Shown here piece after piece: positions 59,314 through 63,975 of a DNA stretch of 64,000 nt. The stretch is taken from NCBI GenBank assembly GCA_019347915.1, contig JAHWKL010000002.1, positions 2,425-66,424 on the forward strand, read 5' to 3'. Below the pieces are notes generated by a model. It saw only the letters and a program-made list of their open reading frames with translations, ran no database searches and was not told where the DNA came from. Source of the stretch: Actinomycetota bacterium. GTDB taxonomy: Bacteria; Actinomycetota; Acidimicrobiia; Acidimicrobiales; CADCSY01. Position 1 is the first letter of the stretch; each line of letters starts with the position of its first letter. The translations under genes were made by a program, and so were the position numbers.

Positions 59314-59993
59314 CAGATCCAGCCCTTCTCACGCAGCTCGTCGAGGTAGACGTCGTACAGCTCCTCCGCAGCCGGGACGGCCCACTCGTACCACTCGTTC
59401 CATTGCGATTTCGTTGTACTCAGCGGCGGTCTCGGCGAAGTGTTCGCGCAGCGAGAGCCGGAGGTCTCGACGCCCATCGTCGTACCGAAGGTCGGTGAAC
59501 GTGAACACCCCTCGGGGCTGCTTACGCGCAGCGGCGAGAACGAGCGACGAAATCGCCCGGCTCCGCTTGGCGCCGCTGAGAAGGTCGATGTGCGACCACG
59601 CTGAGTCGAGGAACGCCCGGTCCTCGGGGGTGAAGTAGAGCCCGTCGAACGTGGTCTGGATGAAGTCTCGGCTGTCGGCCGCCGGACCGGTGATTCGCGC
59701 GACATCCCCGTCCGTGAGGGTGACAGCGTTGTTAGCGACGGAAGCGTCCGCAATCACCGTCGGGAACGAGAGAAAGTCGTTCGAGGTGACAGCGTAGCCC
59801 ATCGACTTCAGGGTGTAAGACACGCCACCACTGCCCGAGAACGCATCGAGCGCTGAGGCACCACCGAGCTCCCGAAGAGTTCGGCAAGGTGGGGAACCAG
59901 CCGATGCTTCGACCCCATGTACCTCAACCTCGGGAATCTCGCTGCGGCAGCAGCCGCGTGCTCGGCTCGAGACAGCGGTGCGGTCATGGCCAT
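59313..59993 (-). pseudogene. D12-class-like SAM-dependent DNA methyltransferase remnant (at least 2 frameshifts, catalytic motif not found)
   Basis: N-terminus FPRLRYMGSKHRLVPHLAELFG. After a -1 slip in a G run (~59868-59876) it reads ELGGASALDAFSGSGGVSYTLKSMGYAVTSNDF (FxGxG motif I). A second slip (~59395-59415) joins ..FAETAAEYNEI to QWNEWYEWAVPAAEELYDVYLDELREKGWI*. No (D/N)PP(Y/F) motif appears in any frame. Confidence 0.55.
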
Positions 59994-60528: not shown

Positions 60529-60849
60529 TCAGCGCCGCGAAGAAAGCCGACGCGGGCTCGAGAATGCGTTGGCTCGCCGCAGCTCACGGTTCTCCTGCTC
60601 CAACGCCTTGATCCGCGCCCGGTCCTCGCTCGAGGTGCCCGCCTTCAGGCCCTCGTCGACGTCGGCGCGCTTGACCCACTTGCGCACCGTCTCGACTCCG
60701 TACCCCAGCTGATCGGCGACCCGCTGGATCGTCCCGTGCTCGGTGCCCAGCTCCCGGCGCAGCTGACGAACCAACCGCACCGCCTGGGCCTTCTCCTCCT
60801 CTGAGTACCGACGCGTCGTCGGCCTCCCCGGCTTGATCTCCTTCGGCAT
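60529..60849 (-). pseudogene. IS3-family transposase OrfA (HTH), 3'-disrupted
   Basis: ATG 60849 with GAGGATGGAG upstream. MPKEIKPGRPTTRRYSEEEKAQAVRLVRQL...TIQRVADQLGYGVETVRKWVKRADVDEG...LEQENRELRRANA. A 1-nt loss then turns the expected ILxxASAFFAAELD into FSSPRRLSSRR*. Confidence 0.75.
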
Positions 60850-60903
60850 GACTCCATCCTCGTTTCCAAGGTCTGGAGCCTCCAACCAACCCAGGGCGGT
60901 TCA
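60534..60903 (-). mobile_element. IS3-family (IS6110-like) insertion sequence stump: left IR + orfA only
   Basis: The minus strand from 60903 reads TGAACCGCCCTGGGTTGGTTGGAGGCTCCAGACCTTGGAAACGAGGATGGAGTCATG. This closely resembles the IS6110 left end as I remember it (TGAACCGCCCCGGCATGTCCGGAGACTCCAGTTCTTGGAAAGGATGGGGTCATG). Similarity ends after GCGTCGGCTTTCTTCGCGGC (breakpoint 60533/60534). orfB (DDE) is absent. Confidence 0.75.
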
Positions 60904-61746
60904 GTGAGCGCAGCGGAGGCGGCCTCGGCCCACGTCGTCCACGCCGTGGTGGAGGAGGTGGTGGTGCTGGAGGCGGCCAAGGCCCGCGACGAGGCCCGGC
61001 GTCTCGCCGCCGAGGGCGACTTCACCGGCGGACAGAGCCTGCTGCGGGCATCGGCGCACCAACTGCGTCTCAGCGCCATCGGCTCGGCCAAGTCCGACGA
61101 GCTGCTGGCCGAGGCCGACATGCTCGACGACACCGGGGCCTCGCTGGCCCCGAGCTCCTACGACGCCAGCGCCCGCAAGCGCCTCCACGGTGCCGCCATG
61201 CGCCGGGAGCTGCGTCGCCTCGGTGTGCAGCGTGTGGCGCCCGAAGAGCTGGAAGGCATGGTGATCGACGCCTGCTTCGAGCTGTTCGACTGCGGAGCGG
61301 CCTGGGACCCGACGGGCGGCGCCCTGCCGTGGACGTGGGCCGGGCGGCGCCTACGCCGGGTTGCCTCGGCGTGGGTCGGCCAGCACGCCGACGAGCTCGA
61401 TGTCGAGCGCTTCGACGCAGGCGCCGACGCCCGAGGCCCGACCCTGGTCGACGACGAGGCCGAGCTCGACGTGCTGGCGCGCCTGGCCGAACGCCACGCC
61501 GGCTGCGCGCTGGTGCTCGACGCACTGGAGCACGTGGCCAGCCGGCGCGACCGGGCCATCGTGTTGGAAGTACGGGTGCAGATGGCCAGCGGCGATCCCT
61601 CCCCCGCGCTCACCGTGGCCCGCCGCCACGGCCTGACGCCTGAGGTCGTCCGCCAGGTGGTCTGCCGGGTCCGGGCACGCCTCAACCACCTGGCAGCCCA
61701 CGACGACCGGTTCGCGCCGCTGGCTGACGTGCCGCCCGTCGCATGA
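60904..61746 (+). CDS. 5'-truncated ORF abutting the IS end; the internal ATG at 61198 begins a sigma-70/ECF-like HTH protein
   Basis: The ORF begins at the base next to the IS inverted repeat. Its first 95 aa (..ARDEARRLAAEGDFTGGQSLLRASAHQL..ELLAEADMLDD..YDASARKRLH) resemble C-terminal tails of actinobacterial VWA proteins (from memory). From M99 on: region-2-like EELEGMVIDACFELFDCGAAWDP..LPWTWAGRRLRR and region-4-like RDRAIVLEVRV...LTVARRHGLTPEVVRQVVCRVRARL. Confidence 0.45.
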   Translation: MSAAEAASAHVVHAVVEEVVVLEAAKARDEARRLAAEGDFTGGQSLLRASAHQLRLSAIGSAKSDELLAEADMLDDTGASLAPSSYDASARKRLHGAAMRRELRRLGVQRVAPEELEGMVIDACFELFDCGAAWDPTGGALPWTWAGRRLRRVASAWVGQHADELDVERFDAGADARGPTLVDDEAELDVLARLAERHAGCALVLDALEHVASRRDRAIVLEVRVQMASGDPSPALTVARRHGLTPEVVRQVVCRVRARLNHLAAHDDRFAPLADVPPVA

Positions 61747-61797
61747 CGGCCGAAACTCTTTCCTCAGGGGCCGGCGCGCTCAGATGACGCGCTCGCT

Positions 61798-61858
61798 GGG
61801 GTCTTCCTTACTCAAGCTCACCCTGGCCACACGTCGATATATGAGGGACGGACATGAT
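61798..61858 (+). repeat. 61-nt intergenic element, copy 1
   Basis: ggggtcttccttactcaagctcaccctggccacacgtcgatatatgagggacggacatgat. It matches copy 2 at 54 of 61 positions without gaps and ends 21 nt before the ATG at 61880. Confidence 0.85.
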
Positions 61859-61879
61859 TCGGTGCCATGGGAGGACCGG

Positions 61880-62065
61880 ATGGACATCAACGATGCACCT
61901 GCGGCTGACCCAGCCCGAGTCGCTTCTCGACCCAGAGCTCGCCACCGATACGGAGGCACCTGCCACCGATGCGGACGAGCGATCACGGTCCAAGAGGGCG
62001 GGCGCGGCGCAGACCTACTCGTCTTGGACTACGACGAGACCTGGGTTCATGCTGGTTGCCTCTAG
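61880..62065 (+). CDS. Small hypothetical protein with zinc-ribbon-like CxxC...HxxC
   Basis: 61 aa. GGGAGGA lies 5 nt upstream of the ATG. MDINDAPAADPARVASRPRARHRYGGTCHRCGRAITVQEGGRGADLLVLDYDETWVHAGCL. Confidence 0.45.
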   Translation: MDINDAPAADPARVASRPRARHRYGGTCHRCGRAITVQEGGRGADLLVLDYDETWVHAGCL

Positions 62066-62269
62066 GACCGGGTATCTGAGGATCGAAGGCATTCACGGCG
62101 GTAAACGCCTGTTGGTGCCACAAAGCGGGTGAGGAGTTCGCCAGTCCGGCTACGTCCGGACCGTGCGGGGTTTCCGGGACTTGCGGCGCTTGCAGATCCG
62201 GCTCCGTCCGGCTCTGTCCGTCGTCGTTCGTTCGACAAGCTGTTTGACACGTTCTGGCGCGGTACATGC

Positions 62270-62515
62270 TCAGCCACGTTGCTGCTCGAGTTCGTGCTCG
62301 ACCGCTCGGCGAGTCCAGCTGGATACAGAGCGATGATCATCGCAGCGCGCCGACGAACCTCCTCCAGGGCGTCACCCCAGGGTCTCCGGCCCGAACCGAA
62401 CCGGGACCATCTCGGTGAGCCTGGACCGGCGGCGGCGACCGGGACCCTGCGGCTCCCGGTTCTCGGGCTCGGCGTAGAACTCGACTTCTTCGGCGCGAGT
62501 CATCTTCTTCGTCAT
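62270..62515 (-). pseudogene. Ribbon-helix-helix (CopG-like) antitoxin-type gene with in-frame TGA / two compensating frameshifts
   Basis: ATG 62515 with GGGAGGA upstream. MTKKMTRAEEVEFYAEPENREPQGPGRRRRSRLTEMVPVRFGPETLG then TGA (62372..62374). The expected continuation DALEEVRRRAA is in another frame. The original frame resumes with DDHRSVSSWTRRAVEHELEQQRG* (stop 62270..62272). Confidence 0.6.
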
Positions 62516-62585
62516 CGGTCCTCCCGCACCGCTCGGCGGTGACAAGGCGTCCGGACATCGTCCGGACAGTGACTATGCTCCCCAC

Positions 62586-62876
62586 ATGAGCGAGCCCGCC
62601 GTCACTCCGTCCCGGCGCCACCGCCTCGAGGTGCGCGTCACTCCCGAGCAGGACGCGCTGATCCGCCAGGCGGCCGATCTCGAGGACACGACCGTGACCG
62701 CCTTCGTGCTGGACACCGTCACCGCCAGGGCCAAGGGCGTGATCAAACAGCGGCAGGACCTGGTGCTGTCCAACGAGGCGTTCGATCGCTTCATCGCCGA
62801 GCTCGACAAGCCAGCCGAGCCGGCACCAGAGCTGGTTGAGCTGTTCAAAGAGAACCCCGCGCTCCGCGACGAGTGA
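62586..62876 (+). CDS. DUF1778 (TacA-type RHH) antitoxin
   Basis: 96 aa. RLEVRVTPEQDALIRQAADLEDTTVTAFVLDTVTARAKGVI plus a C-terminal toxin-binding tail. Its stop overlaps the GTG of the downstream GNAT gene. Confidence 0.85.
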   Translation: MSEPAVTPSRRHRLEVRVTPEQDALIRQAADLEDTTVTAFVLDTVTARAKGVIKQRQDLVLSNEAFDRFIAELDKPAEPAPELVELFKENPALRDE

Positions 62877-63387
62877 GCGATCCGAACGTACGGCTGGAGC
62901 GCCTGGGGCCCCACCACCATCTCGGCAGCTTCGAGTGCGGGAACGCGGAGCTCGACGACTGGCTTCGACGCCATGCCGTCCCGGCACAGGAGATGGCTCG
63001 GCCCGGACGTTCGTGCTCATCAGCAAGGACCACGTCGTTGGCTACTTCAGCCTCACCATGGGCTCGGTGCGACGGGCCGACGCCCCCGCCAAGCTCGTAC
63101 GAGGCCTACCTGCCTATCCCGTCGGGATGGTTCTGCTCGCCCGGCTCGCCGTCGCCGGCCAGGCCCAGGGCAAGGGGATGGGTGCGTTGTTGCTGGCGGA
63201 GGCTCTGCGCAAGGCCGTCGCAGCCGGGGAGGCTGTCGCAGCCCGACTGGTCGTGCTCGACGCCGTCGATGACGACGCCGCCAGGTTCTACGAACGACAC
63301 GGCTTTGTCCCCGCTCCCGGCCACCGGCTGCGGCTGTACCGACGAATGAAGGACATCCGCGCCAGCCTCGATCGGGCACGGCAGTGA
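62873..63387 (+). pseudogene. GNAT acetyltransferase toxin (TacT/KacT type), frameshifted
   Basis: The frame from GTG 62873 gives MSDPNVRLERLGPHHHLGSFECGNAELDDWLRRHAVPAQEMA, then nonsense. The -1 frame (62836..63387 ORF) continues SARTFVLISKDHVVGYFSLTMGSV...LARLAVAGQAQGKGMGALLLAEAL...FYERHGFVP with the acetyl-CoA motif QxxGxG. The 1-nt indel is at ~62990-63005. Confidence 0.8.
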
Positions 63388-63457
63388 GCGACGCAGGAAG
63401 GAGCAGTCGACGCCGCGGATGATCCGGGTCGACGGCGAAGGCGTCCATCCCTGATGA

Positions 63458-63518
63458 GGGGTCTTCCTTACTCGAGCCCACTCTGACCACACGTCGATAG
63501 AAGAGGGACCGACATGAT
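63458..63518 (+). repeat. 61-nt intergenic element, copy 2
   Basis: ggggtcttccttactcgagcccactctgaccacacgtcgatagaagagggaccgacatgat. It ends 23 nt before the ATG at 63542. Confidence 0.85.
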
Positions 63519-63541
63519 GAGACATCTGGCAGGGTAAGGGC

Positions 63542-63859
63542 ATGGATTCGGCGCGTTCGTACGAGCACATCACCGCCGAGGACCTTGCTCGACTCGGCGA
63601 GCTCGCCGGCGCCGACCGAGAGCAGTTCTTCAAGGGGCGCCCCGAGTACCGGGATCGGCTTCGCACCGCAAACCAGAGGGACCTCTTCCGGCGAATCTTC
63701 GGGTTGGCGACTTCATGCTCGATGCTCGCTGGCATGGTCGACTCGTCCAACGCGAAGACCGCTTCTGCGTCGTCGCCTACGACGGCCTCGACCCGCTCAC
63801 CGGACGTGAGCGGCTGTCGCTGGGACCCGCGGCCACTCGTGAGGGCGCCGAGCAGGTAG
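63542..63859 (+). CDS. Hypothetical ORF (only the first ~45 aa look coding)
   Basis: MDSARSYEHITAEDLARLGELAGADREQFFKGRPEYRDRL has plausible composition. The remainder overlaps the integrase-like frame and looks like read-through. Confidence 0.3.
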   Translation: MDSARSYEHITAEDLARLGELAGADREQFFKGRPEYRDRLRTANQRDLFRRIFGLATSCSMLAGMVDSSNAKTASASSPTTASTRSPDVSGCRWDPRPLVRAPSR

Positions 63860-63975
63860 CCGGCGATGGCGGCGAGGCCGGGTGGTCCTGCGGGCCCGAA
63901 ATGAAAGCACGGAGCCCGCCCCGCCGCCGTAGAAGCTGCAACGGGATGGCGAACGGGGAAGGAACCCCACCATGA
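63715..63975 (+). pseudogene. Tyrosine-integrase N-terminal arm-binding domain fragment
   Basis: ARWHGRLVQREDRFCVVAYDGLDPLTGRERLSLGPAATREGAEQVA matches the GxxYQRxDGRWxxxxxxGxDPxTGKRxxxxxxxxTRxEAExxL pattern of actinophage / integrative-element integrases. The sequence then degenerates and stops at 63975, with no catalytic domain in the window. Confidence 0.45.

Follow-up and report, generated by a model that had tools for sequence, protein, structure and literature searches.

The window analysed here is a stretch of 64,000 nucleotides from an Acidimicrobiia-like genome, and it contains a 61-nt element that occurs twice, both times on the plus strand (Table 1). As the preliminary description had it, the two copies are identical at 54 of 61 positions (89%) without gaps, both follow a stop codon (the nearest upstream stops end at 61746 for copy 1 and 63387 for copy 2), and they end 21 nt and 23 nt ahead of the ATG codons at 61880 and 63542, respectively. 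The mismatches fall at element positions 17, 21, 25, 29, 43, 45, and 53, and the longest identical runs are of 16 nt (positions 1-16) and 13 nt (positions 30-42), the latter containing the 10-mer that had been singled out as unchanged. Similarity between the copies ends sharply at both borders, with none past element position 61. The G+C content of the element is 54-56% (54% in copy 1), against 71% in the window and the genome. We rejected a coding role for it because the spacing of the mismatches (17, 21, 25, 29, and so on) has no codon periodicity and no reading frame is supported. A 42-nt degenerate pattern found only these two sites on both strands of the window, where shuffled sequences gave an expectation of 0.00; searches with the 5' block (16 nt) and with the 3' block (23 nt) likewise matched the two copies alone. 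Neither a third copy nor an inverted copy of the 16-nt end (up to three mismatches) is present in the window.

Table 1. Features at and between the two copies of the element (positions in the window).
Feature	Coordinates	Strand	Remarks
Gap between the end of synteny and copy 1	61774-61797		24 nt; blastn homology to L002 ends at 61773
Copy 1 of the 61-nt element	61798-61858	+	Repeat family D3; CTCAAG at 61811-61816, CGATA at 61835-61839
61-aa zinc-ribbon-like gene	61880-62065	+	C28-x2-C31 ... H57-x2-C60; looks intact; ribosome-binding site GGGAGGA ahead
TacA antitoxin	62586-62876	+	PF08681, E 2e-24
GNAT toxin (TacT), frameshifted	62873-63387	+	GNAT domains only in the second reading frame
Copy 2 of the 61-nt element	63458-63518	+	CTCGAG at 63471-63476, CGATA at 63495-63499
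Orphan ORF after copy 2, 5' part	63542-63706	+	Coding signal for about 55 codons, then lost

The toxin-antitoxin genes that the copies had been said to bracket do lie between them, and the interval of 1,599 nt holds more than this cassette: the zinc-ribbon gene, a stretch of about 300 nt that lacks a coding signal, a small minus-strand ORF that is truncated, TacA, and the frameshifted GNAT toxin. The TacA/GNAT region has an identical sequence in an independent Logan contig (L001). To the left of copy 1, the closest relative is L002, whose neighbouring gene is 95% identical in amino acids, and relatives carry a convergent gene at the point where synteny breaks. The surroundings also include a VWA/sigma-like chimera with a 238-nt deletion, a fragment of an IS3 OrfA, and a fragment of a methyltransferase gene.

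The gene after copy 1 has relatives. A full HMMER search of a library of 1.84 billion proteins returned 12 matches at E<=0.001, half of which (6/12) are small proteins of 60-81 aa, including two of 61 aa that are 62-63% identical to it. The C, C, W, H, and C residues are invariant in the family alignment, and the AlphaFold model has four short strands at a pLDDT of 60. By these alignments, ORF 61880 is a member of a genuine small-protein family, though a word-indexed search with the same ORF missed this family. A profile search of metagenome and viral contigs with the family alignment gave no confirmed loci, tblastn against phages and plasmids found no relatives of the gene, and its downstream partners in the orthologous loci have no match in Pfam or PADLOC. 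The sequence that follows the gene in one of these loci (L009) has been lost in the window. The gene after copy 2 is of another kind. Its first 55 codons have G+C contents of 0.69, 0.45, and 0.82 at the three codon positions, and it is truncated, since the coding signal is lost thereafter. It has no match in Pfam, PHROGs, NCBIfam, or PADLOC, and no word-sharing homologue in the word-indexed search, the one that also missed the zinc-ribbon family.

The preliminary description had asked whether the element is conserved outside the window, and it is: a recognisable version lies just upstream of the zinc-ribbon gene in four independent orthologous metagenome lineages (L009; L010/L011; L014; and L012/L013). 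The L009 contig begins inside the element, matches copy 1 at 33 of 37 positions, and continues into the same gene; blastn homology between L010 and the window extends from CTCAAG (61811) to the stop codon of the gene (62065). Since homologues of the element precede orthologues of ORF 61880 in all four lineages, we identify copy 1 as the native upstream region of the zinc-ribbon gene. The genes upstream of this pair differ in the three lineages where they are visible (3/3), and the two lineages that show the downstream genes have different ones there. What stays constant is therefore the upstream region together with the zinc-ribbon gene. Copy 2 has in common with copy 1 lineage-specific positions that vary among the orthologues, which argues for a duplicate over a convergent site and makes copy 2, on this comparison, a paralogous duplicate of copy 1 that arose within the lineage.

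Within the upstream alignment, conservation is concentrated in the blocks CTCAAG and CGATA, plus GRCCAC, and the spacer sequence is variable. CTCAAG is found in all orthologues examined and has become CTCGAG in copy 2; CGATA is invariant. By direct count, the spacing from AAG to CGAT is 16-18 nt in the four lineages and both window copies, and the distance from CGATA to the ATG is 40-48 nt across the same set (40 nt in copy 1 and 42 nt in copy 2). The pattern CTCAAG-N16-18-CGATA, which was defined on these same sequences, is confined to these sites in the window and 14 loci (about 140 kb), with a chance expectation of 0.065 per 64 kb. Such a bipartite layout at a set distance from the start codon suggests a promoter that departs from the sigma-70 consensus. 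The preliminary description had reported no convincing -35 and -10 hexamers, and our scan bears this out, with 0 sigma-70-type sites between 61500 and 63900. Housekeeping sigma-70 promoters consist of TTGACA-like and TATAAT-like (TANNNT) hexamers placed 16-18 nt apart, and the upstream alignment has no conserved TANNNT past CGATA. Promoters of group 4 (ECF) sigma factors have AAC in the -35 element, CGT, CGAC, CGTA, or CGTC in the -10 element, and a spacer of 14-17 nt (PMC5758882). The element resembles them in having two short blocks, a near-constant spacer of variable sequence, no TANNNT, and a -10-like block that opens with CG (CGATA, compared with CGAC and CGTA). It differs in having AAG in place of AAC in the -35-like block of every orthologue (GAG in copy 2), CGA in place of CGT, and a spacing of 16-18 nt, so that the fit to this class is loose.

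Among the readings first proposed, the comparative data favour a duplicated promoter or operator-leader, through a motif kept in four lineages at a set distance from the start codon; the promoter itself is a predicted one. We think that the locus probably records the duplication or capture of a putative promoter inside a heavily rearranged, decaying island of an Acidimicrobiia-like genome. This process would involve 1) an element that corresponds to a promoter-proximal region, from about 13 nt before the -35-like block to about 19 nt after the -10-like block; 2) copy 1 in its native place, driving gene 61880; 3) copy 2 as a duplicate of the same lineage's version, set at the same distance ahead of the unrelated gene 63542; and 4) truncation of this gene after copy 2 arrived in front of it. 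Both blocks would be read by RNA polymerase with a non-housekeeping sigma factor, or by a regulator, and transcription would start a few bases past CGATA, so that the leader would be about 33-40 nt long. Copy 2 may once have driven ORF 63542, or may still do so. The 61 nt could have been copied by illegitimate recombination, or as part of a larger duplication later trimmed by deletions.

A precedent for such a process is offered by putative mobile promoters, defined as similar upstream DNA (at least 80% over at least 50 nt) before unrelated genes of one genome (PMC3575422). The copies, at 89% over 61 nt, lie within these bounds, are non-coding, and stand upstream of two genes that are unrelated on alignment of the 61880 and 63542 regions; as in the published cases, the homology stops short of the coding sequences, and neither a known mobile element nor an Rfam family matches. 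They differ in their position, at about -84 to -22, the survey of Matus-Garcia, Nijveen and van Passel (2012; PMC3575422) having covered the interval from -150 to -50, and in that one of the downstream genes is a truncated orphan.

A less probable account, to which we give a minor but real chance, is that copy 2 is a functionless rearrangement relic, left after deletions of all that lay past position 61, of a zinc-ribbon module once duplicated over a greater length or of another, related module; its position before ORF 63542 would then be accidental, and copy 1 would keep its status as the native upstream region. The rearranged state of the surroundings is consistent with this, with its VWA/sigma-like chimera, its IS3 OrfA and methyltransferase fragments, the frameshifted TacT, the truncated ORFs, and the missing L009-type sequence. 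So is the pattern of change: two of the seven mismatches fall on positions invariant among orthologues (17, in CTCAAG, and 53; P=0.47), and since the mismatches do not avoid conserved positions there is no sign of selection on copy 2, which may be an inert relic. Its identity to the L009 orthologue is also lower, at 81% against 89% for copy 1. However, the borders of copy 2 enclose the complete conserved motif, its distance from CGATA to the ATG is inside the range of the orthologues, and neither copy is flanked by the further homology that a trimmed larger duplication might leave.

It was also proposed that the copies are relics of att sites. In its broadest form, this account makes each copy an att-type site, or the border of a module, at the left end of a unit that was inserted on its own during tandem accretion, with a recombinase acting in trans. 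Both copies do start at an identical base, the DNA to the left of each being unrelated; copy 1 begins 24 nt past the point where synteny with L002 stops; and the unit of upstream region and zinc-ribbon gene is found in differing gene neighbourhoods. We nevertheless regard this as improbable. First, the window has no tRNA or tmRNA. Second, the supposed integrase fragment from 63715 finds no support in Pfam, PHROGs, NCBIfam, PDB sequences, or tblastn against phages and plasmids. Third, the same gene has this upstream sequence in an orthologous locus of 8.5 kb (L012) where no integrase is called. Fourth, the copies differ at seven of their 61 positions, and the window lacks further copies in either orientation. 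Fifth, conservation among orthologues is bipartite with a variable spacer, which is not the layout of a core between inverted repeats. Integron attC sites are imperfect palindromes with RYYYAAC ... GTTRRRY boxes that fold as single strands. The copies resemble sites of tandem accretion or attC in that a segment with genes, a TA module among them, lies between direct repeats; they differ in having no verified recombinase, no tRNA, no R'/R'' boxes, and no stable hairpin, and in that orthologous loci have this sequence as an ordinary upstream region. As an attC candidate the element was rejected: it is devoid of AAC and GTT triplets and folds more weakly than shuffled sequences.

A bolder form of the promoter reading would make CTCAAG-N16-18-CGATA a portable promoter cassette, read by a dedicated alternative sigma or sigma-like factor of Acidimicrobiia and copied as one piece to bring newly acquired island genes under the control of this factor. 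We hold this to be quite improbable. A divergent sigma-like family of about 220 aa, which adjoins copy 1, is one candidate reader of such a cassette. The link to the adjacent gene was rejected, since the gene is a truncated chimera in the window and its relatives never lie beside the zinc-ribbon gene. The VWA/sigma-like loci examined do not contain the motif, and nhmmer and blastn did not find the element in the loci of sigma-like homologues (L002-L008).

Least probable of all, and very doubtful, is an RNA reading: a cis-acting leader or a small RNA whose CU-rich 5' part would pair with GAGGG, or which would hold a short upstream ORF beginning at the NTG at positions 57-59. RNAalifold does pair the pyrimidine-rich 5' part with a purine-rich part, and ATG, GTG, or TTG stands at the same position in copy 1, L009, and L010, followed by ATT and preceded by GAGG(G/A)GAC. 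But the checks suggested for a structured RNA speak against one. Rfam gave no match at the gathering threshold over the whole window and nothing relevant at E<=10 between 61600 and 63800. The folds of both copies, on both strands and with or without flanks, are less stable than shuffled sequences (z-scores of +0.4 to +1.9), and the consensus of five upstream regions is weak, with an energy of -8.1 and a covariation term of -0.32. The helix proposed between GGTC and G(A/G)CC has no compensatory change, and its pairing is not above that of shuffled sequences. An upstream ORF was rejected: two lineages (L014 and L012) lack the start codon, and neither frame nor length is conserved (7, 19, about 48, and 92 codons).

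A search for further copies had been suggested. In plasmids and phages, blastn with the 61-mer gave only chance fragments. An exact-pattern scan for TCTTCCTTACTC-N12-16-CACACGTCGA had 0 matches in IMG/VR viral contigs and in the contigs of species-representative genomes, and one for GGGGTCTTCCTTACTCNAGC had 0 matches in the genome contigs; together, the scans of 185,579 species-representative genomes covered the element's two halves. A scan of JGI metagenome contigs with CCACACGTCGATANNNGAGGGAC, the 3' half only, also had 0 matches. A MITE or the end of an insertion sequence, which would be expected to show terminal inverted repeats, multiple copies, and a target-site duplication, was rejected, as the window has no inverted copy of the 16-nt end and these scans gave no copies in genomes, metagenomes (3' half), viral contigs, plasmids, or phages. 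Start-associated sequences and stoperators of actinobacteriophages are phage-borne repeats of 13-17 bp with many copies per genome. The element resembles them in being short, in a single orientation, and placed shortly before start codons in narrow intergenic gaps. It differs in having two copies of 61 nt, in a sequence that was not found in viral contigs, plasmids, or phages, and in a zinc-ribbon gene for which the searches of phages and plasmids returned no relatives.

The data do not indicate a new class of element, and the repeat looks like ordinary promoter reuse. The main practical value of the analysis is that the att-site and RNA readings can be set aside and that the annotation of an integrase fragment is shown to be unsupported. 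If the favoured reading is true, the locus would be a clean small case of promoter reuse in an uncultivated Acidimicrobiia-like lineage whose promoters are essentially uncharacterised. It would also yield a candidate promoter motif of the non-sigma-70 type and, in the conserved zinc-ribbon gene of 61 aa, a test case.

The repeat is real and is most likely a duplicated promoter region, the first copy of which is the native, promoter-like upstream region of the small gene that follows it. As claimed in the preliminary description, the two copies of the 61-nt element (copy 1, 61798-61858; copy 2, 63458-63518; both on the + strand) match at 54 of 61 positions without gaps and end 21 nt upstream of the ATG at 61880 and 23 nt upstream of the ATG at 63542, respectively. 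The differences fall at element positions 17, 21, 25, 29, 43, 45, and 53, the two longest stretches of identity measure 16 and 13 nt, and in a pairwise alignment with 100-nt flanks the similarity starts and stops abruptly at both borders. Four of the seven differences (positions 17, 21, 25, and 29; window 61814-61826 and 63474-63486) are transitions that follow one another at intervals of exactly 4 nt, which is probably due to chance. The G+C content of the element is 54-56%, against 71% for the window. Degenerate patterns covering its first 42 nt, its 5' 16 nt, and its 3' 23 nt matched just these two sites on both strands of the window, with 0.00-0.31 matches expected from shuffled controls. 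Exact-pattern scans gave no copy in 185,579 species-representative genomes (both element halves), in JGI metagenomes (3' half), or in IMG/VR viral contigs, and BLAST, by which the preliminary description had proposed to look for further copies, found none in plasmids and phages. The element is thus lineage-specific and not a widespread repeat family; more distant orthologues retain only a short motif, not the whole element.

The gene downstream of copy 1 (ORF 61880) belongs to a genuine family of small proteins: of 12 matches in a full HMMER search, six are small proteins (60-81 aa), and two have 61 aa and are 62-63% identical. C28, C31, W55, H57, and C60 are invariant in the family alignment, a zinc-ribbon-like signature, and AlphaFold models the product with modest confidence as four short strands. 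The upstream region was compared in metagenomic contigs representing four independent family members (L009, L010/L011, L012/L013, and L014). L009 starts within the element and opens with 36 nt that match positions 25-61 of copy 1 at 33/37, after which the same gene follows. With L010, blastn homology to the window runs from 61811 (element position 14) to precisely the stop codon at 62065. CTCAAG and CGATA are the two invariant blocks in the aligned upstream regions, alongside a GRCCAC block four bases 5' of CGATA, and the sequence between the conserved blocks is variable. Counted directly from the sequences, the spacing from AAG to CGAT is 18 nt in both copies, 17 nt in L012 and L014, and 16 nt in L010, and the distance from CGATA to ATG is 40 nt in copy 1, 42 nt in copy 2 and L010, 43 nt in L012, and 48 nt in L014. 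No further instance of the bipartite pattern exists in the window or the 14 comparison loci, both strands included (0.065 expected per 64 kb), a count that is a consistency check and no independent test because the pattern was derived from the same sequences. The genes 5' of the unit differ in all three lineages where they are visible (L010, L012/L013, and L014), and those 3' of it, visible in L009 and L012/L013, are unlike each other, so the constant unit across lineages is the upstream region plus the zinc-ribbon gene. In one lineage (L012 5843-7535, L013 356-2048), conserved genes of 266-309 aa and 167 aa lie downstream of the zinc-ribbon gene, none of which has a match in Pfam or PADLOC, and its surroundings contain DUF433/DUF5615 and other island-type genes. 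In L009, the closest orthologous contig (48-293, against window 61880-62147), an internal deletion joins the opening 36 codons of this gene to a stretch that does not code in the window, so the gene is decaying in at least one lineage.

Four traits of copy 1 and of the orthologous regions are promoter-like: a pair of short blocks that do not vary, a spacer between them that changes in sequence but hardly in length, a fixed distance to the start codon, and low G+C. The element is no housekeeping-consensus promoter: the preliminary description had found no convincing -35/-10 hexamers, and our analysis likewise found no sigma-70-type hexamer pair. In layout, the putative promoter is similar to ECF-type promoters, which have AAC in the -35, CGT, CGAC, or CGTA in the -10, and a spacer of 14-17 nt (PMC5758882), but it lacks the AAC and the CGT and is therefore not assigned to them. 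Copy 2 agrees with copy 1 at positions that vary freely among orthologues, and is therefore a duplicate of this lineage's version rather than a site conserved on its own. Along the 37 nt covered by L009, copy 1 is 89% and copy 2 81% identical to that contig, and the copies agree with one another at 32/37 positions (86%), so the duplication is not very recent. Placed at the same spacing 5' of an unrelated gene (ORF 63542), copy 2 would be a case of promoter reuse and fits the "putative mobile promoters", defined by an identity of at least 80% across 50 nt or more upstream of genes that are not paralogous (PMC3575422). Of the seven mismatches, two lie at conserved positions, as chance predicts (P = 0.47), so copy 2 shows no apparent sign of selection. 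It may now be inert because its gene is truncated, with a good coding signature for ~55 codons that is then lost. That copy 2 is purely a relic of rearrangement is quite possible, if on the unlikely side.

Features of the region surrounding the two copies
Feature	Position	Strand	Basis or remark
DNA methyltransferase fragment	59329-59823	-	phrog_56, E 2e-11
IS3-family OrfA fragment	60529-60885	-	PF01527, E 4e-10
Chimeric ORF, 280 aa	60904-61746	+	VWA C-terminal remnant and sigma-like gene
Truncated ORF	62372-62515	-	between copies
TacA	between copies		PF08681
GNAT (TacT-like) toxin, frameshifted	62873-63387	+	adjoins TacA; split across two frames near 62990

The region from ~58 kb to the window end is a patchwork, and the methyltransferase and IS3 OrfA fragments mark the part 5' of the element as a decayed island. 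The first quarter of the chimeric ORF matches the C-terminal end of a 422-aa VWA protein and the remainder matches a ~220-aa family that, in Acidimicrobiia/Actinobacteria MAGs, always adjoins that VWA gene on its 3' side. At the junction, 238 nt are missing relative to L002 (the closest relative, 95% aa), and the sigma-like part is without ~35 N-terminal codons. This family has no Pfam domain and is weakly sigma-like in profile searches (TIGR02937, E 0.022; sigma region 4 in PDB, E 0.017-0.1). Synteny with the closest relatives (L002) ends at 61773, 24 nt 5' of copy 1. At this breakpoint (61773/61774) the relatives have a convergent gene (L002 2966, L003 6201-6652, L004 6561-6785), whose product resembles sigma region 4 by eye and of which ~15 nt of the 3' end are left in the window. 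Between the copies, the zinc-ribbon gene is followed by ~300 nt without coding signal, the truncated ORF, TacA, and the toxin. A small ORF at 62250-62515 (-), MTKKMTRAEEVEFYAEPENREP...VPVRFGPETLG, meets an early stop and resumes in another frame (...DALEEVRRRAA...); it has no profile match and by eye looks like a frameshifted ribbon-helix-helix antitoxin. The frameshift of the toxin is also found in an independent Logan assembly (L001 403-914), so this is probably a real pseudogene; from window position 62474 on, this contig (from SRR15827330) does not differ from the window, and it continues into an ordinary chromosomal gene. An "integrase fragment" previously placed at 63715-63975 (+) has no match in Pfam, PHROGs, NCBIfam, or PDB sequences, nor by tblastn against phages and plasmids. 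Reading the copies as att sites or module boundaries would account for their identical left border and for the synteny break, but it comes without a recombinase, a tRNA, a third copy, or sequence identity of the copies, and leaves unexplained the same sequence being an ordinary upstream region at loci without a called integrase, which makes it improbable. ARAGORN found no tRNA or tmRNA in the window. Elsewhere, one ORF of 14,578 codons (2499-46235, -) occupies two thirds of the window. RTX calcium-binding repeats (PF00353, E 9e-24) are present in the C-terminal 2,500 residues of its product, the N-terminal 2,500 have no Pfam match, and the product is probably a giant surface protein or adhesin of the RTX type.

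A structured RNA was among the early proposals. Folding was less stable than in dinucleotide shuffles for each copy and each strand, whether flanks were included or left out (z = -0.02 to +1.9); the suggested GGTC/G(A/G)CC helix pairs in 70% of cells (five sequences) against 73% in shuffles, with no compensatory changes, and the RNAalifold consensus is weak (-8.1 kcal/mol, covariation term -0.32). Rfam had no match in the window at gathering thresholds, and no relevant one at E<=10 in 61600-63800. A leader RNA or upstream ORF is very improbable: ATG, GTG, or TTG, then ATT, stands at one position in three lineages, after GAGG(G/A)GAC, but the start codon is absent in two others and neither frame nor length is conserved. 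Nor is the element coding sequence: the mismatches have no codon periodicity and codon-position G+C shows no frame through the element. Among the three readings of the preliminary description, that of a duplicated promoter is strengthened by the conservation of the upstream region at the orthologues, while those of att relics and of a structured RNA find no support. The repeat would then be a further example of an already known kind of event, and the putative non-housekeeping promoter motif a modest bonus.
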